From IMG/VR virus record IMGVR_UViG_3300021256_000061: a stretch of DNA of 37,868 nt. One strand, 5' to 3'. The DNA comes from a virus (lineage: Duplodnaviria; Heunggongvirae; Uroviricota; Caudoviricetes). Below, piece after piece: positions 3,961 through 37,573 of the stretch (its first letter is position 1; each line of letters opens with the position of its first letter). The position numbers and the translations under genes were made by a program. Under the pieces are notes generated by a model, which made no database searches, was not told where the DNA came from, and saw nothing but the letters and a program-made list of their open reading frames with translations.

Positions 3961-3976
3961 AGTAATGTTATAAAAA

Positions 3977-15656: not shown

Positions 15657-16556
15657 TTAAAGGGGGTTGTAATAATGAAATTTAAACCCCTGGGCTTTTA
15701 GCTCGGTCATGGCTCTATCAATAGCTTTTTTCACAAAGCTGGGGCCCTTTGTTTCCACTGCATTCGTGCAATTTCTACAATAATCAAATACTTTACTAGT
15801 ATCCCATCTATACCCCACTCTATCTCGTGGGGTTATTTTGCCCCTGTCAATACTTTTTGTCCATGAGTTCAATGTGCCTTCTGAGGGACATTCAAAATAA
15901 TTTTGTATTCTCTCTTTTATGTACTCAACATACGACTTAAATTCTTCATATTTTTGTTGGTCATATATTTTATTATCTTCGTTGAGTTCCTTTTTTTGGA
16001 TTTCTACATAATCAGCAAATGGCTGACGCTGTTTTCTTCCTCGATAAAGCCATTTTTTAAATGTTTCCAGGGAGACACCCGTGATTTCTCTAAATCCCTT
16101 CCAGTTCGGACTATAATTTGCAAAATAGGCGTCCTTTGCTTCGTCCTTTGACAAAAAGCCAAGCATTACCTTTGTTTCATCAAATTCACCTTTTTTGTTA
16201 TTTTGGTCTACGCAATACACGTTTTCAAAATCATCAAGGTTTGGCCCAAGAAAAACATCCACAGCATCTCCGTCTTTACCCTTAGTAATATTGAAGTATC
16301 CGTAGTGATTTTTCATCACATTATACTGTAGCTCCCCCTTGTCGTTTTTGTAATACCTTTTACTTCCCTTGGGGTTTTCAATAGCAATTTTCATACCCCT
16401 AACAGAAATGTGGGCCATTCTATAGTTACCCGCTTCTTTTTGTTTTTCAGTAGGCGAGGTATCAACTTCGTTTGTGCGTATGTCAATTTCAGACGAAGCA
16501 ATCTCAGATAACATTCGTCTTAATTGTGTTTCATTTATGAGAATTTTTTTTGCCAT
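15657..16556 (-). CDS. InPase (polyvalent-protein inorganic pyrophosphatase-like) domain protein with N-terminal head-cargo helix
   Basis: KEAGNYRMAHISVRGMKIAIENPKGS...HYGYF...KDGDAVDVFLG...DQ...FDETKVMLGF...AYFANY. N-terminus ILINETQLRRMLSE. Confidence 0.8.
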   Translation of the reverse strand: MAKKILINETQLRRMLSEIASSEIDIRTNEVDTSPTEKQKEAGNYRMAHISVRGMKIAIENPKGSKRYYKNDKGELQYNVMKNHYGYFNITKGKDGDAVDVFLGPNLDDFENVYCVDQNNKKGEFDETKVMLGFLSKDEAKDAYFANYSPNWKGFREITGVSLETFKKWLYRGRKQRQPFADYVEIQKKELNEDNKIYDQQKYEEFKSYVEYIKERIQNYFECPSEGTLNSWTKSIDRGKITPRDRVGYRWDTSKVFDYCRNCTNAVETKGPSFVKKAIDRAMTELKAQGFKFHYYNPL

Positions 16557-16954
16557 TAAACATGATTTTTACTTAAATTGCCATAAGTACCAATCTTATC
16601 ATCATACCAATCGGAAACGACTTGTTTTAAGAATTTTACTCTTTGTTCTTCGTTAGAAAACATGGCTTTATATTTTTCGTTAAGTAAATCTTCTAGGTCT
16701 TGTCTGAACATTTTTTTTAACTCCTGGCCAGATGGTGCCTTCATGATTGCTATCTGGATTTGGCATGGCATTCCTGAATTGTCGAGACTGTCCATCAGTC
16801 CGCGTTCAAACGTATTATCTAAAAATTCTTTGACAATAAGCACTTGTTGGGGGTTTATGGGATATCGCTTTTCTTCTTTGACAAGCACATCTTCCGCCAT
16901 TTTATTCAAAATGGTAGACAATTGCGCTTCATTTAATATAACTTTTTTCCCCAT
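16556..16954 (-). CDS. Hypothetical protein with N-terminal head-cargo helix
   Basis: 132 aa, MGKKVILNEAQLSTILNKM. CTATTTAT at 16978-16971. Confidence 0.75.
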   Translation of the reverse strand: MGKKVILNEAQLSTILNKMAEDVLVKEEKRYPINPQQVLIVKEFLDNTFERGLMDSLDNSGMPCQIQIAIMKAPSGQELKKMFRQDLEDLLNEKYKAMFSNEEQRVKFLKQVVSDWYDDKIGTYGNLSKNHV

Positions 16955-17022: not shown

Positions 17023-19596
17023 TTAGGCAATAGTTACATCGCCATTAGAAGAACAAGATATAGAGAAGGTGTGTTTAGTTTCATAATCGTTTGATAGTAG
17101 AAGGTCGGTTATTCGATTCTCATATTCGTTTTCAATTGCCCTAATGACTGGCCTTGCCCCGTATTCTGATTCATCTTTAATTTTTTCCAGTATATGGTCA
17201 ACGGCGCTGTCGTCATAGGATATTTCATAACCAATATCTTCTACTCGTTTTCCAAACTTATTGAGTTCGAGTTTCACAATTTCTCTCATATTTTCATCCG
17301 AGAGTTTGTTAAAATAAATTATATCATCAAGTCTATTAAGAAATTCTGGAGGGAAGCGGTTCTTGAGTTTCTTTGTCAATATTCGCTTTGTGTTTTGGTT
17401 TTCATTTTCTTCAAAGCCGATACCCTTACCAAAATCATTTGCAGCTTTAGCACCAGCGTTTGATGTAAGTATGATGACTGTATTCTTGAAGTCTATCTTT
17501 TGTCCAGTGTTATCAGTCAAAAATCCTTCATCAAAAACCTGGAGAAATAGATTATATACTTCGGGGTCAGCTTTCTCTATTTCATCTAGCAAAATAACAC
17601 AGTGCTTTTTGTTTTTAACCTGTTCTGTTATGAGCCCGCCTTCTTCGTAACCAACGTATCCAGGATTTGCCCCGATGAGTTTGTTCACGGATGTTTTATC
17701 CATATACTCAGACATATCAAACCGTAGCAAATTATTCTCGTCGCCAAAAAGTTCTTTAGCAACCTTTTTTGCTAGAAGGCTCTTGCCTCGACCTGTGCCA
17801 CCAAGGAAGAGGAAGGCGCCATATGTCCTACCATTTTTGAGACCAATTCGATTTCTCTTGAGGGCTTTGCAAACCGAATCAACTGCTTCGTCTTGCCCAA
17901 TAACCTCTTTCTTGATTCTTTCGTCCATCGTTGCGATTCGTGTTTTGTCATCAGCGTTTAAACGGTTAATTGGGATGCCAGTCTTTATTGATATAAGCCC
18001 AAGAATGTCATCTGAAGTGATTTTTTGTGGTACGGTGTGCTCGTCGTATTCTTTTAATTTCTCTTCAAACTCTTTTTTTGTTGCCTCCATTTCTTCGTTA
18101 AGTTGCTTCTCCTCGACTTCTCTGTCGCGCTTATCGTTCAATTCGGATATTTTGGCTTCAATTTCTTTTAGTCTGTTGATTAGATTTTCTAGCTCTTCGC
18201 TTTTTCTGTTATTGGGACTTAGGCTTGAGCCTATTTCATCTAATATATCTATGGCTGAATCTGGGAGGCGACGCTCTGTGATGTATTTATCCGCAAGATT
18301 CATGCATGCCTTTATTGCGTCGTCGTCGTAAATCACTTTGTGGAAATCCTCGTAGTATCCCTTTATATTAAGAAGAATATTCAGGGTCTCTTCTTTCGTC
18401 GGGGCTTCGACTACAATTTTCTGGAATTTACGCGCAAGGCTTGGGTCTTTATCGAAGGTGTTGCGATATCCCTTAAAATCTGCAGTTCCAATAACCTGGA
18501 TGTCTCCATTATCAAGGGCGTGGCTTAGCATTGAGGCTAAACCAAACTCTTCCTGCCCGTTTTTTGCGCTTAAGGTTGAGTCGATGTTATCTATAACCAG
18601 AATACACTGTGGCTGTTTTGAAAGCTCATTGATTAGGTTATCAACACGCTCCTCGAATTGTCCTCGGAGTGTCGTTCCTGCCATCAGTGCCGTCATGTTT
18701 AGTGATAGAAGCTGCCTTCCGTAAAGTACGGGAGGTACGGAACCCTTTTCAATTAAATATGCAATACCCTCAACTATCGCCGTTTTGCCGACGCCGCCAT
18801 CACCCACAAGGATAACATTACTCTTTTTTCTTTTTCCAAGAACTCTACAAATTGCTTCAATCTCTTTTTCTCTTCCTACGATTTTGTCAATCTTCCCTTC
18901 GTTGACCTGCTCGTTAAGGTTGGTACAGTAAGATTTAATGGAGCCACCCATGGGTTTTAGACGTGAATTTGAGCCCCCCATATTACCGAAACCGTTCATA
19001 ATGGCAGTAACTAAATCGTTCGGATTGTCGCCGCTAGCTCTAACTTCGATAACCGTGGGGCGTATTCCGTTATGATTGGTTTTCTCGGAACCCTTCTTTT
19101 CTTCATGTTTATTAACTGGAGTTTCGCCATCCTCAATCTCTTTCTTGCTCTTAATTTTTTCGAAAAGAATATCATAACTAATTGCTGCCTTTTCAAAAAC
19201 CTTACGAATTTTATTGTCTTCGCTTTCGTCTGCAAGAATAGCAAGAAAAACGTGTTCTGAGGTAATTTTTTCCGCACCCAACTTTTCTCTTTCCTTATCG
19301 GCGTCTTCTAATGCCTTTTGAAATTTTGAGTCATACTTCAATTCTCGGTTGGGGCGTAGGGCACTCAGCGCCTTTTGTGAAACAAGGTGATAATACGCTT
19401 CGTATAGGGCATCTAGCGCTGAGGATAGCATACTATCATAAAAAATTTTATAGACATAAGATTCTTTTTGGTCAAAAACCCCCAAGACAAAATACTCCAA
19501 GTTAATAACTGCTGTGGGATAATCTAAGACTAATTTTTGCTTAATGAAATCTAGCAAACTGGTGAGTTCGCTCGAAAACTTTTCGTTATTTATCAT
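17023..19596 (-). CDS. ClpC/ClpA/ClpB-type Hsp100 ATPase
   Basis: 857 aa. Clp-N repeat region, D1 Walker A VGDGGVGKT, LRGQFEER, DKYITERRLPDSAID, coiled-coil M domain, VIGQDEA, D2 GGTGRGKS, FDMSEY, PGYVGYEEGG, LLDEIEKA, IGF loop, YGARP. Confidence 0.9.
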   Translation of the reverse strand: MINNEKFSSELTSLLDFIKQKLVLDYPTAVINLEYFVLGVFDQKESYVYKIFYDSMLSSALDALYEAYYHLVSQKALSALRPNRELKYDSKFQKALEDADKEREKLGAEKITSEHVFLAILADESEDNKIRKVFEKAAISYDILFEKIKSKKEIEDGETPVNKHEEKKGSEKTNHNGIRPTVIEVRASGDNPNDLVTAIMNGFGNMGGSNSRLKPMGGSIKSYCTNLNEQVNEGKIDKIVGREKEIEAICRVLGKRKKSNVILVGDGGVGKTAIVEGIAYLIEKGSVPPVLYGRQLLSLNMTALMAGTTLRGQFEERVDNLINELSKQPQCILVIDNIDSTLSAKNGQEEFGLASMLSHALDNGDIQVIGTADFKGYRNTFDKDPSLARKFQKIVVEAPTKEETLNILLNIKGYYEDFHKVIYDDDAIKACMNLADKYITERRLPDSAIDILDEIGSSLSPNNRKSEELENLINRLKEIEAKISELNDKRDREVEEKQLNEEMEATKKEFEEKLKEYDEHTVPQKITSDDILGLISIKTGIPINRLNADDKTRIATMDERIKKEVIGQDEAVDSVCKALKRNRIGLKNGRTYGAFLFLGGTGRGKSLLAKKVAKELFGDENNLLRFDMSEYMDKTSVNKLIGANPGYVGYEEGGLITEQVKNKKHCVILLDEIEKADPEVYNLFLQVFDEGFLTDNTGQKIDFKNTVIILTSNAGAKAANDFGKGIGFEENENQNTKRILTKKLKNRFPPEFLNRLDDIIYFNKLSDENMREIVKLELNKFGKRVEDIGYEISYDDSAVDHILEKIKDESEYGARPVIRAIENEYENRITDLLLSNDYETKHTFSISCSSNGDVTIA

Positions 19597-22367: not shown

Positions 22368-22386
22368 ATATTTTAATTTGTAAAAA

Positions 22387-22394
22387 CTATTTAT
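22387..22394 (+). promoter_or_regulatory. Putative late promoter motif CTATTTAT
   Basis: Upstream of the ATG at 22414. Confidence 0.6.
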
Positions 22395-22413: not shown

Positions 22414-25400
22414 ATGAAAACATTGTATATAAACGAGGCACAAAAGAAAAAAATAAAAAAAGTGATAGCTGCTCAAGACCAGGTTGGCGGTAAGGTTAAT
22501 GCTGGTGTCATGGAGCCTGTCGCCCATATCACCGAAAACACTGAAGAAACAATCACTCTTTATCATGGGGTGAAATTTGATGGAATGGAGTTTGCCCTCG
22601 CCAATAATAGGTTGGAGCCTAGAGTTTGCTCGGAGGGTGGTCCTAAAGCAATATGGCTCTCAGAAAAACAATATCACTACCCATTTACATTTGAGCTACA
22701 CATTCCTAGACGTATGGTAGAACAAATGACCAACGTGGATTACATTTACACAAAACCAATCTCTCTGAATGAGTTCGGGTGTAAGTTAATCAAAACATCT
22801 TTTTATGTCCACGTGTCGGGGTTTATGGCTACTGTTAACCTTTTGGATAAAAGCTTATTTGAGAGACAATGTAAAATATTGGGTGAGGATTTTCTGACGA
22901 GTTTGTTGTCAACCTTTGAGAAATATCCCGAAATAACTAGCCGTATTGTTGAGCCCGCGCTTGAGGCCGCCGTTCCGCTTGTCCTAAAAGAATCGACGAA
23001 GAAAAAGAAGATTATTAAGAACGACGAGGGAAAAATCGTTCCTGAAATTTGCCCTGATTGCGGTGGAAAGGTTGGTGTTTATATTCAGGGCGAGCCTGTT
23101 TATCTTTGTAGTAAATGCAAAAAATATTTCGGTACAATGCCTTTCCAAAAAAATCTGAAAGAATCCGTACATGGTCTAATGCTTTTGGAAAACGAGGGTA
23201 CGAACATGAAGCGTGCTCGCAAGTACCTTGAAACAATGGGGTATTCTCCTGAAGAAAGGCAAAAAATTCTCGATGCGATTCGTACCGATATACCTAGCAG
23301 CCGTTTGCAACAATGCAAATTCCTCCTTGGCGTCACGAGAATGTATATGGATGGACAGTTGCAGGATGGGCGCTCCATTGCCGAATTGAACAAGGTCCTT
23401 AAATACGTTGCCTCTGACGCGCACGTTAATGAGTACGATTGCGACCTTAACGGCGAAAACCTTGATACATTAGTGCGGAGGTTTAGCGGTGTTGCAAAAG
23501 CCGATTTGGAACAATCCAAAGCAGCGTCTAGCGCGAGACAACTTACAGCCAATAACGACTATACGGTTGTGCCAATTGATAATTATGAGGAGGCGCGAAA
23601 ATACGGAAAGTACACATCGTGGTGTGTAACACATAATGAGGATATGTATAACACGTACACTAATGAAGGTATGGGAAGGTTTTACTTCTGCCTTAGGCGG
23701 GGATTTGAAAATGAGCCTAAAGCAACAGGTAAAAACTGTCCTTTGGATGATTACGGTTTAAGTATGGTGGCTGTCAGTGTCACGATGGAGGGTGAACTCA
23801 ACACTGTCACCTGCCGTTGGAACCACGATAATGGCGGTAGCGATAGCATAATGACACTTGAACAGTTGGAAAATTTGCTCGGGCGAAACTTCTATCAAAC
23901 TTTCATGCCGTACTCGCGGGAAGAACTCCATGCAAAAGGCATCATACTCTTTGACGAAGTTCAGGGGTTACTCGACTCTGGTAAAAGCCCAGAAGAAATA
24001 TTTGAATGGGTTGACAAATTTTATAATGGGGTTGCGGTGGTGGAATTAAATGGTAAAGGCAATTTCATTAATACCGACGGTAAACTCCTTTCAAAGCAAT
24101 GGTTTGATTGGACGGATGACTTTTCCAAGGGGAGGGTTGCACGGGTAGGATTAAACAATAAATGGAATTTCATCAACACCGAGGGACAATTCCCTTTAAA
24201 TCAATGGTTTGATGGCGCGGGGGGATTTCACGAAGGGGTTGCAGGAGTAAGATTAAAAGGTAAATATAATTTCATTAATACCGACGGTAAGCTTCTTACA
24301 AATCAATGGCTTGATTGGGCGAATGATTTTTACAAGGGGGTTGCACAAGTACGATTAAAAGGTAAATACTATCTCATTGACACAAAGGGTAATCTTTATC
24401 CTTGGACCCCCCAAAACTCAATCCCGAAAAACCTGAGGGAATCCAAGGAGGTTGATAGGTGGCGCGACGAATTCGATTACAAACCATATATCAAGTCCAT
24501 AATGAACTTCCTTGCGGAGAAGGGGCTTGAGGTAAAACCGTTCCCTAAGGTGATAATCCACAGGGAGCCTCAGGAGGGTCTATATGTCAAGACTGGGTAT
24601 TATGACCCCGAAACCAGTTGTGTACACCTATTCATTGATTCAAGACACCCCAAGGACGTACTTAGAAGTCTGGTACACGAACTCATTCACCACACGCAGA
24701 ATGTCAGGGGTATACTCGTGGGCTATAACGGCACGACATTGGAGGGCGATGAAGTACTGCAGAGACTGGAATCGGAGGCGTACCTTAAGGGTAACATCTA
24801 TTTCAGGAAATGGACTGAGGAATTGCATCCGACAATTCTGAATACCAAGAAGAATCTCAATGAATCAATCGAAGATGTCTACAATATCGCTGAGGACCTT
24901 GATTGTATTGGCGTTGCGGATACACTTCATGAATTTTTAGTTGATAAAAGAAATGGCATTAAGAAAAAACATTGGAACTTGATTCCTGCGGAACAATATA
25001 AGAACCTTCTAACAAGGTACATGCAAGGCCCATTAACTGCGCGTATCCCAGAAAATATTGTATATGATTGGTTTACTAATATTTTAATACCTAATGCCTT
25101 CGCTATAGACAACATAACAACGCTTGCTGGTCATAACCAGGGCTTTCCAGCGGAAGAAGTTTCTGAGGAATTGGAGTATGAATTCGGTGACCGTTTTGAT
25201 GTAACTGATTACGGTAGTGGATATAAAGCTCTTAACGAGCTCGGCTTTTATGAATGGTGTTCACTTCCTGATGGAAGTGATGGTTGGAGTGACTATGGCA
25301 TAGGGCCCATTTTTGATGAGCTTGCCCAGTATAGACCAAACATGGATGCAGGAGAACTTCTCATATTGATAAACCGCGTGCTCCACATCGGCCACTGTCG

Positions 25401-27495
25401 CGGTGATTTAGCTTCCGCTTTTATTCAGGGTGGCAGTAGGTCTTGTTCCGACATAAGTGGTATTTTGCGTGAGTCAATTGAAAATCCTGGCTTTGCTGCT
25501 TGGTTTGGAAACTCTAAAGTCGTGGATAAGGAAGGTAATCCGCTTCCCATGTACCATGGCACTAATTCAGAATTTACTGCATTCTCAAAGGACTATTTCT
25601 CACATGGAAGCGATGCATATCTCGGCATTGGCTTTAATTTCACTAGTAGCAAATATGAGGCCAGTGGATATGGTGAGAATGTACATGAAGTGTATTTGCG
25701 TGCGGAGCATCCAATGACAAATAAAAGTAAAACAATCTCATTGGGGGCCGTGATGAATGCAATAAAAGAAGTTGATTACGGTGAAGACCCCGATGGCAGC
25801 ATCTGTACAGCGTTGCTAAGTAAAAGGGTTGTAAATCCAACAACTACTGATTTTTATAATGCCGCAAGAGCAATATATGATTATGCGGAAAGTGATGGTG
25901 ATATCTATTCTGCTTTCGGCCTTGCATATAGTGGTTCAAACGATGCGAAAATCACTGAGGTCTTCAAATCAATGGGGTTCGACTCCTGTATCGATTATGA
26001 TAATTATAGCGGAAACATTACTTATGTCGTGGTCTTTGACCCTAATCAAATAAAATCCATCAACGCCCAGAACTTTAACCTAGAAAGTGACGAGACAATT
26101 GACGAAGATATTGATATGTTGGAGGATACAAATCCAGAGGATGTTGACCTTTCGTCATTCGAACCTAAAAAGCAACTTAATCCCCGTTTCTGGAAAAACG
26201 GAAGGCTTGATTCTCGTGTTAGAGTAAGACTTCTTGATATTGCTGACGACTTTATTGAAACACTCAATGTTCCTTGGGTGAACCCTTCCGATATTATTAT
26301 GACTGGTTCACTTGCCAATTTCAACTGGTCAAAAGAACATTCGGATATTGACCTCCACGTTGTCATGGATTTTGATGATGTGGATAAAAATGTTTTACTT
26401 GTTAAAGATTACTTTGATAGCAAGAAGAAGATTTGGAATGATGAGCACCAGAATCTCACCATTGGGGGATTCCCTGTTGAAGTCTATGTTCAAGATATTT
26501 CTGAAGAGCACGCATCCAGTGGAGTGTACTCACTTGAAAAAGACAAATGGATAGTAAAGCCGTCATTGAAGAATTTTGAAGGTGAAATTGATAGCGAGGC
26601 TATTAAAACCAGGGCTGCGGAATACATGAATGAGATTGATGACCTCGAAAATGAATATGAGGACAAAATTGCTGAAACTGACTTGAGTGAACTCCACGAA
26701 AAGGCGGTCGAGTTATTCAAAAGAATTAAGGCCGAGAGGAAAAACGGTTTTGAAAATGGTGGGGGAGAATTTAATACAGGTAATTTAATTTTTAAAACAT
26801 TGAGAAGAAATGGTTATATCGGAAAATTGAGCAGGCTGAAATTAGACACTTATGATGCATCACAATCTCTTTTAAATGAAAATGTAACCGAAGGTGTCTA
26901 TTACCATTACATACGTCTTAGATTTTTAAATGAAATAATAAAGAATAATCGCATCAAACTCAACACAGGCGCTGAAGATGCCCCTGGTGGCGGCTTAGGG
27001 TACCTTTCTTTAACCAGAAACCGTTCGAACGCATATGGTTTTGCTACGTCATATAAAAATCCCGACTATAGGGGTATGGAAAATTATGCACGAATTGAAT
27101 TTGATAAGTCTGCATTTAAAAACATAAGAAATTCAAGTATTAAGCCATATGACTTTTTTGCCTCACAATTCCCCGAGGATGGTCTAAATGGGAAAACATA
27201 TCATTTGAGAAATCTCGAAAGCGGGGAAGATTATGGTAATCAGGATAAAGAACAATTCTGGGCTCAAGCGGAAGATAGACTTATTGCTCCTGGAGATGCC
27301 CATGAGGAAGGTTGTAAATGGTTCATAACAAATGCATTTAAGTATATTAATCGAATAGATATTATGATTCGAGATACTGGATTGTCAGATTATGAGGAGT
27401 TAGTAAGTATACTTAATCAACCAAACTATTCTGCTTGGAAAGAAAAATGTCACATTTACAACAATAATAACAGCAAGTTTAATAGACAATTGTAA
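22414..27495 (+). CDS. Large polyvalent multidomain protein (ART-like, Zn ribbon, WG repeats, HExxH metallopeptidase, ART-PolyVal, Pol-beta-type nucleotidyltransferase, C-terminal ART-like domain)
   Basis: 1693 aa. LYHG...IWLS; CPDC...CSKC; 4-5 WG-type repeats; LVHELIHH; WFGNSKVVD...MYHGT...GIGFNFT...FDPNQIKS; MTGSLANFNW...SDIDLH...VEVYVQD; YYHY...SLTR...QAEDR. Confidence 0.85.
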   Translation: MKTLYINEAQKKKIKKVIAAQDQVGGKVNAGVMEPVAHITENTEETITLYHGVKFDGMEFALANNRLEPRVCSEGGPKAIWLSEKQYHYPFTFELHIPRRMVEQMTNVDYIYTKPISLNEFGCKLIKTSFYVHVSGFMATVNLLDKSLFERQCKILGEDFLTSLLSTFEKYPEITSRIVEPALEAAVPLVLKESTKKKKIIKNDEGKIVPEICPDCGGKVGVYIQGEPVYLCSKCKKYFGTMPFQKNLKESVHGLMLLENEGTNMKRARKYLETMGYSPEERQKILDAIRTDIPSSRLQQCKFLLGVTRMYMDGQLQDGRSIAELNKVLKYVASDAHVNEYDCDLNGENLDTLVRRFSGVAKADLEQSKAASSARQLTANNDYTVVPIDNYEEARKYGKYTSWCVTHNEDMYNTYTNEGMGRFYFCLRRGFENEPKATGKNCPLDDYGLSMVAVSVTMEGELNTVTCRWNHDNGGSDSIMTLEQLENLLGRNFYQTFMPYSREELHAKGIILFDEVQGLLDSGKSPEEIFEWVDKFYNGVAVVELNGKGNFINTDGKLLSKQWFDWTDDFSKGRVARVGLNNKWNFINTEGQFPLNQWFDGAGGFHEGVAGVRLKGKYNFINTDGKLLTNQWLDWANDFYKGVAQVRLKGKYYLIDTKGNLYPWTPQNSIPKNLRESKEVDRWRDEFDYKPYIKSIMNFLAEKGLEVKPFPKVIIHREPQEGLYVKTGYYDPETSCVHLFIDSRHPKDVLRSLVHELIHHTQNVRGILVGYNGTTLEGDEVLQRLESEAYLKGNIYFRKWTEELHPTILNTKKNLNESIEDVYNIAEDLDCIGVADTLHEFLVDKRNGIKKKHWNLIPAEQYKNLLTRYMQGPLTARIPENIVYDWFTNILIPNAFAIDNITTLAGHNQGFPAEEVSEELEYEFGDRFDVTDYGSGYKALNELGFYEWCSLPDGSDGWSDYGIGPIFDELAQYRPNMDAGELLILINRVLHIGHCRGDLASAFIQGGSRSCSDISGILRESIENPGFAAWFGNSKVVDKEGNPLPMYHGTNSEFTAFSKDYFSHGSDAYLGIGFNFTSSKYEASGYGENVHEVYLRAEHPMTNKSKTISLGAVMNAIKEVDYGEDPDGSICTALLSKRVVNPTTTDFYNAARAIYDYAESDGDIYSAFGLAYSGSNDAKITEVFKSMGFDSCIDYDNYSGNITYVVVFDPNQIKSINAQNFNLESDETIDEDIDMLEDTNPEDVDLSSFEPKKQLNPRFWKNGRLDSRVRVRLLDIADDFIETLNVPWVNPSDIIMTGSLANFNWSKEHSDIDLHVVMDFDDVDKNVLLVKDYFDSKKKIWNDEHQNLTIGGFPVEVYVQDISEEHASSGVYSLEKDKWIVKPSLKNFEGEIDSEAIKTRAAEYMNEIDDLENEYEDKIAETDLSELHEKAVELFKRIKAERKNGFENGGGEFNTGNLIFKTLRRNGYIGKLSRLKLDTYDASQSLLNENVTEGVYYHYIRLRFLNEIIKNNRIKLNTGAEDAPGGGLGYLSLTRNRSNAYGFATSYKNPDYRGMENYARIEFDKSAFKNIRNSSIKPYDFFASQFPEDGLNGKTYHLRNLESGEDYGNQDKEQFWAQAEDRLIAPGDAHEEGCKWFITNAFKYINRIDIMIRDTGLSDYEELVSILNQPNYSAWKEKCHIYNNNNSKFNRQL
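23998..24405 (+). repeat. WG (KWG-type) beta-repeat region within the polyvalent protein
   Basis: About 23-aa units (F..GVA.V.L.GK.NFINT.G.....QW.D). Near-identical DNA 'aatttcattaataccgacggtaa' at 24061 and about 24268. Confidence 0.85.
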
Positions 27496-27568: not shown

Positions 27569-29209
27569 ATGAGAAATTTCGAGAATCAGCTTTCAAGAAT
27601 GCAGTCATTAATGACCTATGGCATGCTTACAACTGAAAGTACCGATAAGAGCAGAGCAATTGAATATCATAAGATTGCGAGCGATGGTAAGGCTTATGGT
27701 ATCTTTAAGGAATGCTCTAAGTATTATATTAAGACCGCCCCTGCAGACAAAGAATTGGTAGCAGAGGCATACGATTACATTGGTGGATGGAATAATAGGA
27801 AGAATTATGAATATGAGAGTTTTGCAAACGCTCAGAAGCAGTTTGACCTTAAGATGATGTCTATCAATGAGGCTTGCGGCTCAAAGGCAAATGCCGTGTC
27901 TCTTGACCCTTCAAAGAAACAGGAGTATGTTATTGAGGGTACTGAAAAGATGAAGAACGAGCTTGCTCGTCAGCGCCAGATTATGGCCAACACTGCCACT
28001 ATTATCAATGAAGGTAGCTTTATTGGTGTTGGTGACCCCGAAAAGGTTGCTGGTAACAACGATGAAGATAAACCTTTCACTGAAAAGGCTGAGGCTAAGC
28101 TCGATAAGGACATGTCAGAATCAAAGGGAGAACCCGAGGATATGAGCAATCCTTATGGTGAAGGCGGAGCTGCCGAGAAGGGTAAAGATGTTAAGGATAG
28201 CGATGTTCTCTCCGACGGAGAGGCTGTTGCTGCTCAACATCCTTCAGGCGGAAAAGTCGCCCGTGTAAACGAAAACTGTGAGGATGGCGCATGCTCTTGC
28301 GATGGTTGCAAGGACTGGGGCTCTGAAGGTATTGGCAAGGGCAACGGTGACCCTAAGTCTAATGGCTGGGAAATGGAAGGCCAGCAAAACGTAAACGAAG
28401 GCGAAATTAATGACGCTAAGAGCTGGGATGAAGGACTTCCTGGCGAAGCTGGTACTGGCGAAGCTGATACTGACCACAATAACGACCCATTCAAGGAGGC
28501 CGTTAATGAATCCGAGGATGATGATATTGAAATTCAGGACCCCGAGGCTGGTGAAGATGACGAACCTGTCGAAGATGAAGCGCCTGTAAAGGATGAACTT
28601 CCTGCTGACGCAAATGCAGACGATGCAGAAGAAGATTTGGACCTCGATAATCTTGATGATTTTGAGGATGACGAAATCGCATCACTAGAAAAGGACATCG
28701 AAGCTCTTAGGGCTGAGCTTGAAGCTTTGAAGGATGAGGTTGGCGCCGAAGATGCTCCAGCCGAAGACGAGACGCCTGCCGAAGAAACCCCTGCTGAGGA
28801 CGAGGTACCCGTAGAGGACGAAGCGCCAGCAGAGGAAGAGGTACCTGTAGAGGATGAGCCTGAACTCGGTGGTGAGGAAGACGTTGTCGACGATGACATG
28901 GATGAATGTGATTTGTTTGAAGCAAAACAGAGGTTCATGAATGGCATTGTCGAGAGTGTCGTTAAGTCTATCCTTAACGAAGAAAAAACAATTCTTCATG
29001 ACTTTGGTAAGCATCCTGGTTATCGCAAGAAACCTATGGAGCTTCCTGCAACTGGTTCCGATAACGAAAACGGTATGAGAGACTGGAACGATGATAGCGT
29101 TCATAGCGAAGCACCTTTTGGACAAGGAAAGGGTGATAGCAAGCCATATGAAAAGCTCGTTCAGATGATTACTGACAGCGTTATGGAATCATTTAAAAAA
29201 AAAGATTAA
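27569..29209 (+). CDS. Acidic putative prohead core/internal head protein
   Basis: 546 aa, very D/E-rich, with many INE/VNE sites, a coiled-coil segment and a WDEGLP motif shared with the scaffold. Ends in FKKKD at an A9 run. Confidence 0.7.
   Translation: MRNFENQLSRMQSLMTYGMLTTESTDKSRAIEYHKIASDGKAYGIFKECSKYYIKTAPADKELVAEAYDYIGGWNNRKNYEYESFANAQKQFDLKMMSINEACGSKANAVSLDPSKKQEYVIEGTEKMKNELARQRQIMANTATIINEGSFIGVGDPEKVAGNNDEDKPFTEKAEAKLDKDMSESKGEPEDMSNPYGEGGAAEKGKDVKDSDVLSDGEAVAAQHPSGGKVARVNENCEDGACSCDGCKDWGSEGIGKGNGDPKSNGWEMEGQQNVNEGEINDAKSWDEGLPGEAGTGEADTDHNNDPFKEAVNESEDDDIEIQDPEAGEDDEPVEDEAPVKDELPADANADDAEEDLDLDNLDDFEDDEIASLEKDIEALRAELEALKDEVGAEDAPAEDETPAEETPAEDEVPVEDEAPAEEEVPVEDEPELGGEEDVVDDDMDECDLFEAKQRFMNGIVESVVKSILNEEKTILHDFGKHPGYRKKPMELPATGSDNENGMRDWNDDSVHSEAPFGQGKGDSKPYEKLVQMITDSVMESFKKKD
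28747..28862 (+). repeat. Low-complexity P-A/V-E-D/E tandem repeat linker
   Basis: APAEDETPAEETPAEDEVPVEDEAPAEEEVPVEDEP. Confidence 0.8.
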
Positions 29210-31170: not shown

Positions 31171-33033
31171 ATGTCTAAAACAATCATAATAAGCGAAGAT
31201 GTTTTAAAGAGTGGTGTCCTGGATGAGATTGTAGAAACGAATCAGCTCCCCGATGCCATCCTTCAAGATGTTTTAGTCAATAAAACACCTCTTTCAAACA
31301 ATCCTGCAATTCCTGATGATGTCGGGCTTGAAAAACTTGTTTTACTTTCTTACAAACATTCCTTACAAAAAGATATACCTAACGGTAAAATAGAAAAAGC
31401 AAAGGATGCGATTTCTAAGATTGTTAAGGAAACCCAAGAAATCGAGCGGCCCATCAGAAACAACCTTGAACAATTGATTTGTGAGAAGGTTGTAAATCTT
31501 CTTAATGTCCCCATCGAAGCGGTGGATTTTTCGTTAACGCTTGAAGATGAAATTCCTCAAAGTGAAACGATAATACCTTTTGGGCCAAATGAGACGGTTG
31601 CTAATCCTTATTACTATACAGATATTGCACAGCAAAAAATACTTGTAGGCGAAGCGTCAAAAAGGAAAATGATAAACGTTCTTGTCGCTGGGGCAGCACA
31701 GTATTATACTAAGAGAATTTTGGATGAGAGTGCAGCAGAATTAGACGAGTTTAATGGGCGTTTGTATGATTTGTATTGCGATTATTTGGCAATAAACGAA
31801 CATTTACTTTTTTGCGATAAAGAAATTAACATTACCGAGGAGAATAAAGGTTTGGTTGGTACCTCAATCGTTGACCTTGGCAATGACGACACTAAAAATC
31901 GTCTCGTAGCGAAAGGGACAACGTTCCCAATTTTAGTTTATGAAACAATAAAAGGCTTTTTGGAAATGTGTGCTGCACACGGCTTGCCTGAAGATAGAAA
32001 ATTGGCTGATGAGGTTCTTTCAATATCTGACTATCTTTCTGCAGAACCATGGAATATGCGTTTGGGTACTGCGGTTTGGTCTTATTTTAATCGGGCAACA
32101 AACAACGCTCCAGCGAATACTTTACCATATGTTTTAATGAAAATTTCAAAGCTGGATACTGAAAAATTTAGTAACCTCATGAAGGGCGTTTTCCAAGAAA
32201 CGCCGCAAGCTTCCAGGGTATTGGAGCGCGTGGTTAAATATGCTATTAAGAAGAACGAACACGCGGAGTTTAATAAAAAAATGAATGCCTTCTCGAACTC
32301 CCTCGTAGTGATTAATGATGATGAAAAACTGTTAAACGAGAATGTCTCGGATATAGTTTATCATTTTACTTGCTCTTGGCCAGGAATTGTTCATAATGAC
32401 TGTTTTTATTTTAGGTGCAATGACTCTCCTTTTGCTGGAAAATCCAATCCTGTTGGCTACCCATATTACATGTCAGTCACAAGAAGCAAAAACAGCAGAG
32501 TTGGTTATGCGCTAAAATTTGAAGGCACCTCGCAACCGTTGGCAAGGCTTACAATAGACGGTAGAATGATAAACCAGAGCAATCTCTTTAAGGGCTCTCC
32601 GTTTAATTTTTTCTATGATGTTGAATGGAATGGTTCGGAATCACCTTCTGCAAAACAACATTATCATAATTTTTTAAATGGTAACAAAAGAGATAACTAC
32701 CCAACCGCTGGATATGATATTTTTTCACACGATAGGATTGAACGCGATAATAAAAAATATTCTTCACCAGACAGGGATGAATTAGACGCTTCCTTTAGAG
32801 TTCAGTCGGAAGATAGAATCTATACTAAAGTCCAACGCCTTGATGATTTTCATAAGTATGTATTGAGAATGGATATTCTTCTGAATGGACGTAGCAGGCT
32901 GGCAATTTTAACGGCTTTAAAATCAATGCCTGGTATTGATGTGTGGAAAGATAAAATCTATTTTTATGAGGAGGCCCGTGATTTTGATATGCAAAACGAT
33001 AGGGGAGTGCCTTGTGCAAGATTAATAAACTAA
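31171..33033 (+). CDS. Two-domain putative virion protein: unknown N-terminal domain plus C-terminal ART-like domain
   Basis: 620 aa. LLNENV junction at about aa 388, then IVYHF...SVTR...RLTIDG...QSEDR, paralogous to the last domain of the 1693-aa protein. Confidence 0.7.
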   Translation: MSKTIIISEDVLKSGVLDEIVETNQLPDAILQDVLVNKTPLSNNPAIPDDVGLEKLVLLSYKHSLQKDIPNGKIEKAKDAISKIVKETQEIERPIRNNLEQLICEKVVNLLNVPIEAVDFSLTLEDEIPQSETIIPFGPNETVANPYYYTDIAQQKILVGEASKRKMINVLVAGAAQYYTKRILDESAAELDEFNGRLYDLYCDYLAINEHLLFCDKEINITEENKGLVGTSIVDLGNDDTKNRLVAKGTTFPILVYETIKGFLEMCAAHGLPEDRKLADEVLSISDYLSAEPWNMRLGTAVWSYFNRATNNAPANTLPYVLMKISKLDTEKFSNLMKGVFQETPQASRVLERVVKYAIKKNEHAEFNKKMNAFSNSLVVINDDEKLLNENVSDIVYHFTCSWPGIVHNDCFYFRCNDSPFAGKSNPVGYPYYMSVTRSKNSRVGYALKFEGTSQPLARLTIDGRMINQSNLFKGSPFNFFYDVEWNGSESPSAKQHYHNFLNGNKRDNYPTAGYDIFSHDRIERDNKKYSSPDRDELDASFRVQSEDRIYTKVQRLDDFHKYVLRMDILLNGRSRLAILTALKSMPGIDVWKDKIYFYEEARDFDMQNDRGVPCARLIN

Positions 33034-33316: not shown

Positions 33317-34036
33317 ATGGAAAAGAAAAATACATTAACCGAAATAAAAAGAGGACAAACTGGACGTGGCCTTCTCATTGAACAGGATGGCTATATGTGC
33401 TTGGAGGAATCTGATAGGAAATTCCTTAAAGAGGGCGTCCTTGAAAGCGGCGAAGCGGGGGGTTGGCATTGTCCCAATCCATTTATTGTTTCTGCTGTTT
33501 TCCAGAAATTCGGTATTGAAAACCATAATGGGCGAATATACCCAGAAGACGTTCTTAAACGTGAAGTTGAAAAATATCAAGTTAAAATACAGGAAAAGAG
33601 GGCATACGGGGAATGTAACCACCCGAGTGAGTCCGTAATTGACCTCGGTCGTGTTTGTATGAATATTGTAGAACTTCATTGGGAACAGCACACTCTGGTT
33701 GGCAAAATTGAAATCATAACCTCTGAGGCGTTTAGGCGTTCTGGCATTATTTGTTGCCTTGGCGATACTGTGGCAAATTTGCTTCTTAGTGGCCTTAAGA
33801 TTGGTGTTTCTTCTCGTGCGGTTGGTTCTGTTGAGCAGCGTTTCGGTAAAATGATTGTTGGTGATGACTTGGAACTTATTTGCTGGGATGTGGTTAGTGA
33901 CCCTAGTACGCCAAATGCTTGGATTACAGATACACCAGAAAAAGCTCAACTTTATGTTGAAAATACCCCTAAAAATGGCGAAAAAATATTCGAAAGCCTC
34001 TCAAAATTTGATGAATGGCTTGGCTTGAATAATTAA
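33317..34036 (+). CDS. Prohead core protease (T4 gp21-like)
   Basis: NHNGRIYP, catalytic-His motif GECNHP, catalytic-Ser motif IGVSSRAVGS, and DVVSDPS. Upstream of scaffold and capsid genes. Confidence 0.92.
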   Translation: MEKKNTLTEIKRGQTGRGLLIEQDGYMCLEESDRKFLKEGVLESGEAGGWHCPNPFIVSAVFQKFGIENHNGRIYPEDVLKREVEKYQVKIQEKRAYGECNHPSESVIDLGRVCMNIVELHWEQHTLVGKIEIITSEAFRRSGIICCLGDTVANLLLSGLKIGVSSRAVGSVEQRFGKMIVGDDLELICWDVVSDPSTPNAWITDTPEKAQLYVENTPKNGEKIFESLSKFDEWLGLNN

Positions 34037-34093
34037 AAATTTAACAAAATAATCATAAAATGTTGGCTGATTGCGATTTTTCGCATTTAACCA

Positions 34094-34139: not shown

Positions 34140-35606
34140 ATGAGCGCTAAAGATAAAAAAAATATTGCTGCTGAAGCACTAGTTACTGCCGATAATATTA
34201 AGGCCGCAATTAAGGAAGAAAGCAAAAGCACAATACAAAATCTTCTTCAAGAAGCCGTTAAAGATTACATGAGAGATGCTATTGACGGTGATGAGGACGA
34301 TTTTGAAATACAAGACGACAACGAAAAGGATGCTGCCGAAGATAATTTGAATAACGATGCAGAATCATCCACCGACGACGCTAAGGATGGTGAGTTCCCA
34401 GAAGGTGAAGACTTTAAAGAGGTACCCGATGACGAACCAGCAGCCAAAGACGGTGAAGAGGCTAAGGATGACGCCGAAGATTCATCTGAGGATGAAACCC
34501 CAGAGGAAGGTGGCGAAGATGAATGGTCTGAGTTTGACAAATTTAAGGTAGATGATGATACATATGACCTTACGGGCGAGAAAGACTACGATTCTGTAGT
34601 GAAAGTTTACAAACTCCTTAAAGATGAGGATAATATCGTCGTTAAAAAAGACGGTGACAAACTCACCTTGAAGGATGGTGCAAATGACGCTGAGTATGTG
34701 ATTGACCTTGGTGCTGACGATGAGAGTGATTCAGAGCCTGCAGAGGAACTCAAGGAAAACAACATCGCTGGTATCCCTGAAAATTTAAAAGAAAACAAAA
34801 AAAATCGTAAGACAATGAAAGAAAACAAGGAAAGAATATTCGAGGTTGACCTTGGATATACAGACAACTACCAAAAGAAAGACCCTATTGAAGGTCTATC
34901 CAACAACGAACCTGGCAAGGGTAAGGATTGGGACGAGGGACTTCCTAAAGGAACTGAAAAGCCTTGGGTTGGTGATAAAGTAAAGTCCGCAGGTGAACCT
35001 TATGAGAAGGCTGTTAATGAGACTGAAGAGCCCGCTCTTACGGATATTACTGAACCTGAAAAACCCGAAGAGGCTCCAGTGGAAGAGGCTACCAATGTTG
35101 GTGGTGCTGTCCAGGAAAGGGGTGCAGGCATAAGCCACATTCCTGCAGGACGCGAAGAGTACGTACCAGACGGAAGTCGTCACCTCTCAGCAGGCGGTGA
35201 TTACAAAGAAGTCAAACTCGCTGAATCCATTTTAGCCAAGTCCGAGGCTATTCTTAAGGAAAACAAAGAACTTAAGGCAACCCTTAACAAAGTTACCGCT
35301 CTCCTTCAGGAAGCACGCGTTGTTAACGTAAGCCTTGGAAAAGTTACTAAACTCTTCCTTGAGAACACCACCACGAAAAACGAAAAGGTGGACATTATTA
35401 ATCGCTTCAATGAAGCAAAAACAATTGAGGAATCTAATGCTCTTTATGAGTCAATTAAGAGAGAACTCAACAACACTAAGCAGAGTGTTATGCTTGAAGG
35501 AGCTTCTGCAACCGCTAAGGGTTCAGAGATTAACGAGAACAAAATCTATGAATCTAAGGACCTTCTCGATATCAGAAGTTTCATGAAAAGAATGGATAAC
35601 TGCTAA
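34140..35606 (+). CDS. Prohead core/scaffolding protein (T4 gp22-like position)
   Basis: 488 aa, acidic, with a C-terminal coiled coil and many L-x-E sites. Located between protease and major capsid genes. Confidence 0.78.
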   Translation: MSAKDKKNIAAEALVTADNIKAAIKEESKSTIQNLLQEAVKDYMRDAIDGDEDDFEIQDDNEKDAAEDNLNNDAESSTDDAKDGEFPEGEDFKEVPDDEPAAKDGEEAKDDAEDSSEDETPEEGGEDEWSEFDKFKVDDDTYDLTGEKDYDSVVKVYKLLKDEDNIVVKKDGDKLTLKDGANDAEYVIDLGADDESDSEPAEELKENNIAGIPENLKENKKNRKTMKENKERIFEVDLGYTDNYQKKDPIEGLSNNEPGKGKDWDEGLPKGTEKPWVGDKVKSAGEPYEKAVNETEEPALTDITEPEKPEEAPVEEATNVGGAVQERGAGISHIPAGREEYVPDGSRHLSAGGDYKEVKLAESILAKSEAILKENKELKATLNKVTALLQEARVVNVSLGKVTKLFLENTTTKNEKVDIINRFNEAKTIEESNALYESIKRELNNTKQSVMLEGASATAKGSEINENKIYESKDLLDIRSFMKRMDNC

Positions 35607-35650: not shown

Positions 35651-37573
35651 ATGCGCGAATTTTTAACAAGCGGTCAGGTCGGAACCATCGAACTGAACGA
35701 ACAAAGAAAAATCAGACAACAGATTACTGAGCGTTGGGACAAACTCGGAATGACCGAGGGTCTCAAGGGACTCGTAAAGGAAAATATCGCAACTCTTTAT
35801 GAGAACGAGGCAAAGCAGCTTCTTTCAGAGGCTACCGACGCTAACAACAGCGGTTCTTTCGAGACTGTGGTATTCCCTATCATCCGCCGTGTCTTCAGCA
35901 AGCTTCTTGCTAATGACATTGTCTCTGTACAGGCCATGAACCTTCCTGTAGGAAGACTTTTCTTCATGCTCCCTGTTACATCCGAGCGTAATTGGTCAAG
36001 CGACGCTATCGAAGATGGTGTTACCGCTTCTCACAATGGTCTCCAGGGCTATGAGAGGACTGACCGCCGCAACGGAAACAAATACAACCGCTTCTATCTT
36101 CCTGACGAAGTAGTTAACGGTATGGAATTCACCTACACCATGGCCGACGGTACCACTGGTACTAGCGAGACCTATGACGCAGCCGTTGAGGCCGCTGGTA
36201 AGGGTGGACATGTAGAGCAGACTAACCCTGAGGTTACTCGCTACATGAAGAAGAGCCTTTATGACCTCTTCTACAACGACTTCCTCTATGACAATTCTAA
36301 GGGTAAAATCCACATCAAGGTTGGTGACGTTACTCCTATGGGATTTGTTAAGGGTGAACTCGTAGAACTTACTGACGCTAGCCAGATTAAGCTCTATGGT
36401 GACGGTACTGTACGTAACATCATCGTTAAAGTTGGTGGTTTCTCATCATTCAACGCTGGCAAACTTACTGGTCCTGACGGAAACGAAATGGACACCGAAG
36501 CTTTCTTAGCTTCTCTCAAAGTTGTTGCTGCTAAGGCTATTGGTTCAGCTACCGCTGATACTGCTTCCTTCGCAGAGGGCGACAACATTAATTTCCGTGT
36601 TGTTACACAGAAATATGGCAAGGGTATTGTAGAGTATGCATCAGCATGCGACGCAGAAGGCTGCATCTACATTGACCTCGACCTTAGCAAGCCTGTTAAG
36701 AAGCAGGGTGCATCTATCGACGGTTACGTTGGTGTTGCTCTCGAGGACGTCGAAGACGTTATCTCTGACGCCGCTTCTCTCTTCAAGGCTGCTTGGTGCC
36801 AGTATGACTCACTTGAGCTCGAAACCGAGATGGGTGAAGTTTCCTTCAAACTTGACAGTGTAACTGTTTCAGTTGAAGAGCGTAAGCTTCGTGCAACTTG
36901 GTCTCCTGAACTCGCCCAGGACGTAAACGCATTCCACAACATCGACGCTGAAGCTGAGCTCACCGCTCTTCTCTCAGAACAGATTGCTGCTGAAATCGAC
37001 CGTGAAATTCTCCGTGACCTTCGTAAGGCTGCCCCTTGGCAGGCACGTTGGGACTACAACGGATGGCGTCGTGCAGCTGGTTTCTCAACCAACTACACCC
37101 AGAAAGACTGGAACCAGATGCTTGTTACCAAGGTTAACCAGATTTCTGCTCAGATTCACAAGTCTACCCTTCGTGGTGGTGCAAACTACATTGTAGTTTC
37201 TTCTGAAATCTCTGCAATCTTCAATGACCTTGAGTACTTCCACGTAAGTGATGCATCTGCTGAGTCAGACCAGTACAACATGGGTATTGAGCGTATCGGT
37301 TCACTCGCTGGCCGTTACCAGGTCTACATGGACCCTTATTCACCTGTTAACTCACTCATCATGGGTCACAAGGGTAAGAGCCTTCTTGACACTGGTTACA
37401 TCTATGCTCCATACATCCCTATGCAGCTTACTCCTACCATCTACAACCCTGCAAACTTCGCACCTGTTAAGGGTATCCTTACCCGTTATGCAAAGAAATG
37501 CGTTAACAACCGTTTCTATGGTGCAGTTCGCGTTGACGGCGTTGTATCTTGGGACCCTGCAGAACTTCGCTAA
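35651..37573 (+). CDS. Major capsid protein (T4 gp23-like)
   Basis: 640 aa. PIIRRVF...VQAMNLP.G..F, RKLRATWSPELAQD..AFHNIDAEAELTALLSEQIAAEIDREI, GYIYAPYIP, PVKGILTRY. Highly biased codon usage. Confidence 0.95.
   Translation: MREFLTSGQVGTIELNEQRKIRQQITERWDKLGMTEGLKGLVKENIATLYENEAKQLLSEATDANNSGSFETVVFPIIRRVFSKLLANDIVSVQAMNLPVGRLFFMLPVTSERNWSSDAIEDGVTASHNGLQGYERTDRRNGNKYNRFYLPDEVVNGMEFTYTMADGTTGTSETYDAAVEAAGKGGHVEQTNPEVTRYMKKSLYDLFYNDFLYDNSKGKIHIKVGDVTPMGFVKGELVELTDASQIKLYGDGTVRNIIVKVGGFSSFNAGKLTGPDGNEMDTEAFLASLKVVAAKAIGSATADTASFAEGDNINFRVVTQKYGKGIVEYASACDAEGCIYIDLDLSKPVKKQGASIDGYVGVALEDVEDVISDAASLFKAAWCQYDSLELETEMGEVSFKLDSVTVSVEERKLRATWSPELAQDVNAFHNIDAEAELTALLSEQIAAEIDREILRDLRKAAPWQARWDYNGWRRAAGFSTNYTQKDWNQMLVTKVNQISAQIHKSTLRGGANYIVVSSEISAIFNDLEYFHVSDASAESDQYNMGIERIGSLAGRYQVYMDPYSPVNSLIMGHKGKSLLDTGYIYAPYIPMQLTPTIYNPANFAPVKGILTRYAKKCVNNRFYGAVRVDGVVSWDPAELR

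Follow-up and report, generated by a model that had tools for sequence, protein, structure and literature searches.

Positions 22414-27495 (+ strand) of a 37.9 kb stretch of viral DNA (37,868 nucleotides, 39% G+C; IMG/VR record IMGVR_UViG_3300021256_000061, Caudoviricetes), which as a whole is here called the window, form one uninterrupted open reading frame (ORF) of 1693 amino acids (aa) and 193 kDa; an earlier note, made from the DNA letters, had this extent right. We consider it fairly likely that the gene encodes a phage polyvalent effector which is loaded into the head as a polyprotein and cut there by the prohead protease; its loading, cleavage, retention and ejection we infer from the precedent of phage T4, and the activities of the pieces are likewise putative. 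A motif of the type cut by T4-like prohead proteases recurs in the protein, lies in predicted linkers and is conserved at the protein level in homologues with shuffled domains. The scaffold protein of the same genome has an excess of it, a protease of the matching family is encoded nearby, and the gene itself lies among head genes. The link to the prohead protease is drawn because this S77 homologue is present, because the motif agrees with the published specificity of T4 gp21 and its processing of Alt, because the scaffold is saturated with the motif, and because the motif does not depend on the metallopeptidase that the protein itself carries.

Junction motifs in predicted linkers

Eight (I/L)xE motifs had been listed in the earlier note, and every one is where it had been placed: ITE↓N (39-41), LKE↓S (191-193), LKE↓S (248-250), LRE↓S (674-676), LNE↓S (815-817), LRE↓S (1018-1020), IDE↓D (1229-1231) and LNE↓N (1487-1489). 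The arrow marks the bond after the Glu (P1); P3 is the Leu or Ile and P1' the residue after the bond. INE↓A (6-8) and LLE↓N (257-259) are further sites that the note did not have. The protein holds 9 copies of [IL]xE[SN] against 2.7 expected by composition (Poisson p=0.002) and 29 of plain [IL]xE against 20 expected. Plain [IL]xE is thus not rare, and the signal lies in the position of the sites and in P1'.

AlphaFold models, built on alignments of homologous fragments, cover residues 1-300 and 660-1693, and both resolve compact domains. Segments with a predicted local confidence (pLDDT) below 50 are 22-42, 189-199 and 244-264 in the first model and include 660-679, 806-817, 1015-1023, 1209-1237 and 1486-1494 in the second; together they contain all eight listed sites and LLE↓N at 259. 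Of the modelled residues 25% are of such low confidence, and 8 of the 9 [IL]xE[SN] motifs lie among them (binomial p=1e-4), as does IDE↓D. Among the 27 modelled [IL]xE, Ser or Asn stands at P1' in 8 of 9 linker sites and in 1 of 18 elsewhere (Fisher p=3.5e-5), the sole structured [IL]xE[SN] being IPE↓N (878-880), with Pro at P2. The comparison of linkers with folded domains that the earlier note had called for therefore places the sites in predicted flexible linkers (pLDDT<50), outside the folded domains. A reading of the motif as an N-glycosylation-type sequon (N-E-S) was rejected, Asn being at P2 in just a third of the sites.

Domains between the motifs

At least eight domains were told apart by AlphaFold2 (AF2) and Pfam, all coordinates below being on the + strand. 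The protein opens with MKTLYINE↓A, and residues 1-8 (22414-22437) are a candidate capsid-targeting or processing peptide. Residues 9-41 (22438-22536) form a basic helix (8-23 in AF2) and a disordered stretch (pLDDT<50 at 22-42) that runs up to ITE↓N; the homologue alignment shows a KKAIAAQDQVGGKVNAG block in this part of the protein to be kept. The LYHG domain (aa 42-193; 22537-22992; 17.5 kDa), modelled at a pLDDT of about 90 and ending in LKE↓S, may have a fold like that of an ADP-ribosyltransferase (ART); among known structures it comes closest to Tpt1/KptA, the TreTu ART toxin and CC0527 (probability 0.90-0.97, weak E-values of 0.06-0.1). It is followed by a C4 zinc ribbon (aa 194-250; 22993-23163; 6.4 kDa), seen as CxxC...CxxC in the sequence and as beta strands at 219-241 in the model, flanked by the low-confidence linkers 189-199 and 244-264 and again ending in LKE↓S.

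Residues 251-676 (23164-24441) comprise a short spacer to LLE↓N (259), the SWCVT module and WG beta-repeats (Pfam WG_beta_rep, E=1.3e-11), and end in LRE↓S. The SWCVT/WG module is the most widely shared module among the homologues, and a PcfJ-like lead for 260-520 came from a language model only. Next is a minimal zincin metallopeptidase with HELIH (aa 677-817; 24442-24864; 16.7 kDa; ends LNE↓S), which gave weak Pfam matches below the cut-off (DUF6782, DUF6647) and Foldseek matches to selecase, IrrE/PprI, SprT and ArdC (probability 0.96-0.99). The acidic all-helical domain after it (aa 818-1020; 24865-25473; 22.8 kDa; pI 4.5; pLDDT about 85-95; ends LRE↓S) matched no family in Pfam or PHROGs.

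The ART-PolyVal domain (aa 1021-1231; 25474-26106; ends IDE↓D) matches Pfam PF18760 over residues 1038-1221 (E=4.5e-20; cut-off 31.2 bits). A nucleotidyltransferase (NTase) of the Pol-beta type with a helical domain takes up aa 1232-1489 (26107-26880; ends LNE↓N); it matches phrog_36119 (E=5e-44) and, weakly, Pfam PF01909, and its Foldseek matches are CD-NTase, aminoglycoside NTase (ANT) and MNT. The C-terminal YH...SLTR domain (aa 1490-1693; 26881-27492) is poorly modelled, with partly low pLDDT, and is possibly ART/DarT-like, a lead to the DarT/PARP cluster (0.92) that came from the language model only. Neither the LYHG nor the YH...SLTR domain has a Pfam match.

The domain calls of the earlier note thus hold for ART-PolyVal, the WG repeats, the metallopeptidase, the NTase and the zinc ribbon, each by Pfam, PHROG, fold or sequence. 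Of its two ART-like calls, the N-terminal one is backed by the weak fold matches above, and the C-terminal one by the language-model lead. Between 2 and 15 unrelated effector domains in one chain, the pairing of ART-PolyVal with a zincin and a head-gene context, by which polyvalent proteins are recognised, are all found here.

The joint in homologues with shuffled domains

Word-indexed searching yielded 215 homologues of 930-2460 aa, with varied module orders, on contigs of up to about 400 kb. The gene had no megablast match among GenBank phages, and tblastn against phages gave matches to single modules only, for the most part to the NTase (Lak, Synechococcus and Maribacter phages). Maribacter phage Molly was rejected as a cultured model, its match being a stand-alone 265-aa NTase gene and not a polyvalent one. 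By the capsid protein, the closest cultured relatives are Flavobacterium immuto, Microcystis Mel-JY01 and RM378, at about 35-41% identity over half of the protein.

We located module breakpoints by all-against-all BLASTP of 121 proteins, counting the ends of high-scoring segment pairs where both proteins continue. In the protein studied here, breakpoints cluster at 195, 253, 667, 810, 1023 and 1234, and weakly around 1489. Within 12 residues of [LI]xE[SN] the breakpoint density is 4.3-fold (Leu at P3) or 3.8-fold (Ile at P3) the protein mean, against 1.2 for LxD[SN], 0.27 for LxK[SN], 1.2 for the reversed motif, 1.06 for [AGS]xE[SN], 1.5 for LxE followed by a residue other than Ser or Asn, and 2.0 for VxE[SN]. 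Within 15 residues of the strongest junctions, the strict motif is found in 51% of cases and the relaxed form ([LIVM]xE[SNGAD]) in 74%, compared with 9% and 21% for random positions; looser peak calling lowers the 51-74% of the stricter peaks to 25-43%. The motif thus marks most junctions, not all, and the claim of the earlier note that a site stands at essentially every domain junction was too strong, about 50-74% of strong junctions having one.

The sites themselves are kept when the domains around them change. L191 and E193, which close the LYHG domain, show at least 90% conservation among homologues whose chains continue with a zinc ribbon, with an ART module or with unrelated sequence. 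The P1 Glu is 87-100% conserved at sites 193, 676, 817, 1020, 1231 and 1489, where the flanks are 14-38% identical; at 676, 817, 1020, 1231 and 1489 the P1' residue is Ser, Asn, Gly, Ala or Asp in 77-100% of rows, the linker flanks being 25-38% identical. Different, unrelated domains follow the same motif in homologues. Conservation under domain shuffling, which the earlier note had put forward as a check, is therefore borne out by both the breakpoint enrichment and the alignments. In the motif, Leu is encoded by each of its six codons, Glu by either of its two and Ser by both of its codon families; this diversity argues for selection on the peptide and not for a DNA recombination signal, and a DNA-level junction is ruled out by it.

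The head protease, its scaffold and its capsid protein

The gene at 33317-34036 (+), which the earlier note had taken for the protease, encodes an S77 prohead protease of the T4 gp21 type by Pfam (PF03420, E=5e-21), PHROG (phrog_207, E=3e-40) and alignment. It aligns to T4 gp21 (PDB 5JBL, E=5e-12), with His and Ser at the two positions where the 5JBL chain has Ala; these would be the catalytic residues, mutated in the crystallised T4 protein. Its LTE ends at residue 9, matching LIE-9 of T4 gp21 (PMC9026906). The protease also has LEE↓S (29-31), LKE↓G (37-39) and IFE↓S (224-226), candidate self-cleavage sites at both ends.

Published work has gp21 cutting after the Glu of L/I-x-E (PMC9026906, PMC5694885), and the specificity that the earlier note had assumed agrees with it (PMC9026906). 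The T4 enzyme chops core proteins into fragments, strips N-terminal peptides of 7-65 residues from gp23, gp24, the internal proteins (IPs) and the packaged ADP-ribosyltransferase Alt, and also trims the C-terminus of Alt (PMC9026906, PMC5694885).

Between the protease and capsid genes, as gp22 is in T4, lies the gene of an acidic scaffold/core protein of 488 aa (34140-35606, +). It has 9 copies of [LI]xE[SN] against 0.99 expected (p=1e-6), which puts it first when all 133 ORFs from the window and from five related loci are ranked without prior selection; scaffold orthologues came 2nd and 6th in this ranking, and polyvalent proteins 3rd, 4th and 8th. After [LI]xE, the P1' residue in four scaffolds is Ser in 13, Asn in 10 and Ala in 9 of 51 cases (32/51), compared with 9/44 for these residues in five non-virion enzymes of the window. 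The major capsid protein of the gp23 family (35651-37573, +; Pfam Gp23, E=2e-73) has LYE↓N (49-51) and LSE↓A (58-60), conserved in 4 relatives and near the expected propeptide boundary; residues 29-65 of mature T4 gp23* align to its residues 73-109. The order of protease, acidic protein and gp23-type capsid protein mirrors T4 genes 21-22-23. An S77 protease in the genome, L/I-x-E in predicted linkers of the candidate, and the motif in scaffold, capsid protein and protease, as would be looked for with a gp21 substrate, are all found here.

The chain's own zincin metallopeptidase could instead do the cutting, whether inside the head or once the chain has been injected, and Iyer et al. (2017) argue that the metallopeptidase (MPTase) domain processes polyvalent proteins (PMC5512222). 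The HELIH zincin module is indeed present, with a fold that matches SprT, ArdC and IrrE. We nevertheless hold self-processing to be quite improbable: 57 of 120 homologues have no zincin module, with an HExxH string in only one of these 57, and motif density is 3.6 per 1000 aa in homologues without the module against 3.4 in those with it. This equal density favours an enzyme acting in trans. The motif, moreover, fits the published specificity of gp21 and is enriched in scaffolds and in the leaders of peptidase-free proteins.

A leader at protein starts and inside chains

The beginning of the protein, MKTLYINE, has the same form as the capsid-targeting sequence (CTS) of T4, MKTYQEFIAE, a sequence confirmed in a published paper. 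We defined the leader pattern as h-x-h-[TSN]-E within the first 14 residues, with MK-x-h-x-h-[TSN]-E as its fuller form. Of 131 ORFs in the window and the related loci, 19 have it, against 0.9 expected from the internal rate, orthologues between loci not being independent in these counts. Six ORFs of the window carry it (10338, 15657 (-), 16556 (-), 22414, 29745 and 31171). A short N-terminal peptide that is common to unrelated head cargo and ends in a protease motif, as in T4-type CTS cargo, is found here. Where the earlier note had taken the N-terminal helix for the packaging signal, a short MK-x-h-x-h-[TSN]-E leader with a helix behind it is the better description, and the leader also stands at internal junctions. 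Complete leaders are found inside homologues as well as at their N-termini (82 internal and 58 N-terminal copies), and the internal ones sit directly after a minimal site, as in P0015 (...IIE↓SKSKKTIYITE↓TQEKKIKKAIAAQDQVGG).

Two genes at 15657-16954 (-) bear leaders, one for a 132-aa protein (MGKKVILNE↓A) and one for a stand-alone InPase (MAKKILINE↓T). The latter (15657-16556, -) has 299 aa, matches PF18823 (E=1.4e-47) and carries its leader at the N-terminus. In P0084 and on contigs L001 and L004 the InPase module is embedded in longer proteins behind an internal leader. The InPase proteins of the relatives have 493-525 aa (L001 4343-5824 (-), L004 3167-4744 (-) and L006 3057-4583 (-)), and an additional domain at the N-terminus of those from L001 and L004 makes the leader internal, where it follows a ...AE↓S or ...EE↓G site.

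A second carrier is the head-module protein of 620 aa at 31171-33033 (+), with the leader MSKTIIISE↓D. Its residues 1-371 are 42% identical to a 387-aa orthologue on L004 which is without the extension, and its core corresponds to a conserved 385-387-aa protein of related phages. The extension of about 230 aa is a putatively ART-like module: residues 385-599 match residues 1484-1682 of the polyvalent protein (P0001; E=1e-6), and both modules start after LLNE↓NV. A reading of ORF 31171 as the large terminase was rejected, as it had no Pfam match and the 385-387-aa orthologues are distinct from the large terminase (TerL) in L002 and L005. The internal leaders, the InPase that occurs alone and embedded, and the ART-like module on two carriers point to chains that are strings of cargo cassettes, whose genes fuse and split at protease-type joints.

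Evidence against cleavage at the joints

The same observations allow a different account, in which the protein is packaged largely at full length, the leader alone is removed, and the junction motifs are fusion scars of leader-bearing cargo genes that have been kept as flexible linkers. Complete leaders at internal junctions would be expected from it. Several homologues stop exactly at the motif of the NTase end (site 1489 type), and there a cut would take off 1-3 residues and be pointless, so some motifs may be fusion scars. The C-termini of P0018, P0005, P0024, P0020, P0027 and P0022 read ...SL(L/F)NE(N) with no module after; a joint motif in this place may be what a lost module left behind, or may serve for docking. 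Precedent also exists: the identified cuts of the SPN3US prohead protease, save its self-cleavage, all remove N-terminal propeptides (PMC10052503), and N4 vRNAP-type polyvalent proteins are packaged unprocessed (PMC5512222).

Besides these homologue ends and the SPN3US cuts, further points weigh against processing of the chain into its domains. Breakpoints also cluster where the protein has no site (about 297-300, 503-535 and 635), and a quarter to half of the strong junctions of the homologues have no motif. The homologues are related, hence the counts are not independent events, and the relatives are all uncultured. Alignment rows that end at junctions themselves partly lower the pLDDT there, although junctions 817, 1020 and 1231 are spanned by at least 9 colinear homologues. 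A complex prediction of protease residues 40-215 with the linker 798-837 scored 0.02, which is no answer and weighs neither way.

Full-length packaging is nonetheless unlikely in our judgement. P3 and P1 are conserved far above the linker flanks across 40-60% sequence divergence, and having Ser or Asn at P1' sets the linker sites apart. In a prohead full of active gp21-type protease, an L/I-x-E exposed in a disordered linker would be hard to shield, and the same extended motif marks the scaffold, a protein that is cut in T4.

Genome context

A promoter-like motif, ACTATTTAT, lies at 22386-22394 (+), about 20 bp 5' of the start codon of the polyvalent gene. The window has 10 exact copies of it (719, 10030 (-), 10312, 16971 (-), 20426, 20759, 22386, 27527, 30402 and 34093) against 0.78 expected, each just 5' of a gene start. 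The copy at 34093 precedes the scaffold gene, and others precede the leader-bearing genes 743, 10338, 16954 (-), 27569 and 30429. It probably serves as a late promoter element of the phage.

At 6-8 kb downstream of the polyvalent gene come the genes for the S77 protease, the scaffold and gp23, in a conserved order: ClpB-like, KTSC protein, a protein of about 510 aa, polyvalent protein, a protein of about 550-690 aa, small proteins, S77, scaffold and gp23. This order of the head module is kept on the 364-397 kb gut-metagenome contigs L001, L004 and L006, and in L002 and L005 TerL and a T4-type portal adjoin the locus.

This context bears on a third alternative, that the protein is no virion component at all and acts as a cytoplasmic multi-enzyme, the motif being a favoured linker or a junction for cassette exchange. 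Domain shuffling is extensive, as such exchange would have it. The motif codons, however, vary freely, with no DNA-level junction; the gene lies in the head module and has ACTATTTAT in common with the scaffold gene; its leader is common to other head-module proteins; and ART-PolyVal and InPase domains are typical of head-packaged proteins (PMC5512222, PMC9503650). We therefore give a purely cytoplasmic role very little credence.

Right after the polyvalent gene, 27569-29209 (+) encodes a conserved protein of 546-689 aa without a family match (orthologues at L001 14338-16377, L004 14078-16147 and L006 14034-15851). It keeps MMSINE↓ACG and IINE↓GS, and has Ala, Gly or Ser after [LI]xE in 29 of 46 cases; these motifs and the P1' bias suggest another likely substrate of the protease in the head core. 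Beside the head module, at 11350-13622 and 17023-19596 (-), lie genes for AAA+ proteins: a double-AAA+ protein of 857 aa that is like ClpB/ClpC, and two proteins of 378 aa each, of which one is like ClpX. The window showed no ClpP. Within the phage genome there is also an IS1595-type DDE transposase with a zinc ribbon (7333-8274, +; PF12762, E=4e-30), and L001 has an OrfB_IS605/TnpB gene at 2969-4195. The large terminase of L005 (20590-23658; 1022 aa) has a weak match to LAGLIDADG_3, which suggests an intein or a homing-endonuclease insertion.

Proposed mechanism

On the reading that we prefer, cleavage of a packaged polyprotein by the prohead protease, the gene would be expressed late together with the head genes. 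The N-terminal leader and helix would bring the protein into the core of the assembling prohead, as the CTS does in T4. The S77 protease, active in the closed prohead, would then cut after the Glu of the exposed linker motif [I/L]xE↓S/N. About nine pieces of 6-48 kDa would result. Fragments of 17.5 kDa (ART-like), 6.4 kDa (zinc ribbon), 47.7 kDa (SWCVT and WG), 16.7 kDa (zincin), 22.8 kDa (acidic helical), 23.2 kDa (ART-PolyVal), 29.8 kDa (NTase) and 23.8 kDa (second ART-like) would be retained, being too large to exit the shell, and small peptides would be lost. Ejected with the DNA, the fragments would act separately in the next host.

A broader proposal, which we put forward tentatively and with slightly more doubt than confidence, is that of a general plug-in cargo system, in which a leader of the form KK-x-I-Y-I-T-E↓x-Q and the joint [I/L]-x-E↓S/N are read by the prohead protease and the scaffold. 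Any enzyme could then be loaded, as its own gene or as a bead of a polyprotein, and the head protease would set the injected repertoire.

Comparison with known systems

Predicted head packaging of polyvalent proteins, trimming of cargo (including an ART) by gp21-type proteases, and multi-site processing in giant phages are already known. The closest parallel to the system described here is that of the T4 IPs and Alt, with an S77 protease, L/I-x-E followed by a small residue, an N-terminal leader (MKTLYINE↓A here, MKTYQEFIAE↓A in T4), cargo that includes an ADP-ribosyltransferase, and a gene that sits with head genes. In T4, however, the cargo consists of single-domain proteins from separate genes, of which gp21 trims the ends alone, whereas here at least eight enzymes are strung together in a single 193-kDa chain, cut motifs mark internal junctions, and leaders also occur within chains. 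Neither Alt nor the IPs showed sequence homology to it.

The described polyvalent proteins (PMC5512222) share with this one a multidomain effector with ART-PolyVal, zincin MPTase, NTase and relatives of the InPase family, a phage head context, extensive domain shuffling and predicted delivery to the host. That work proposes processing by the embedded MPTase and names the prohead protease only in its reference list; the junction motif described here, in contrast, fits the prohead protease and is independent of the MPTase. Our literature search found no paper tying the junctions of polyvalent proteins to the prohead protease.

In the giant phages (phiKZ gp175, SPN3US gp245, 201phi2-1) a diverged gp21 homologue also cuts many internal head proteins after Glu. 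The phiKZ motif is S/A-x-E, several cuts per substrate are possible, and long propeptides serve as targeting signals (PMC5694885, PMC9026906, PMC10052503). The cuts identified in SPN3US, self-cleavage aside, do not separate a string of catalytic domains, and unlike phiKZ, the sites described here keep the T4-like Leu or Ile at P3. By analogy only, the polyproteins of picorna-like viruses and the retroviral Gag-Pol are also single products that are assembled into the particle and cut at short linker motifs, which yields separate functional proteins in equal amounts; they differ in that this is a tailed phage with double-stranded DNA, its protease has the unrelated S77 fold, like that of herpesvirus assemblin, and the products would be accessory effectors instead of replication or structural proteins.

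Implications

Polyvalent proteins are thought to be a multi-tool that many phages inject first, and the route from the chain to its enzymes is unsettled. To the published proposal of self-cleavage by an embedded metallopeptidase, the locus described here adds a testable alternative through a T4-type head protease. If this alternative is true, a single targeting signal would load eight enzymes in equal amounts, and the exact ends of each injected enzyme would be predictable from the sequence, which would help their expression and assay. With the leader and joint motifs, the proteins that uncultured 360-400 kb phages of gut and rumen inject could also be catalogued, and capsids could be filled with proteins of choice, a use to which the T4 CTS is already put. 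Should the plug-in proposal also be true, it would amount to a widespread and so far undescribed principle of effector delivery, and would replace the model of metallopeptidase self-processing for head-packaged polyvalent proteins.

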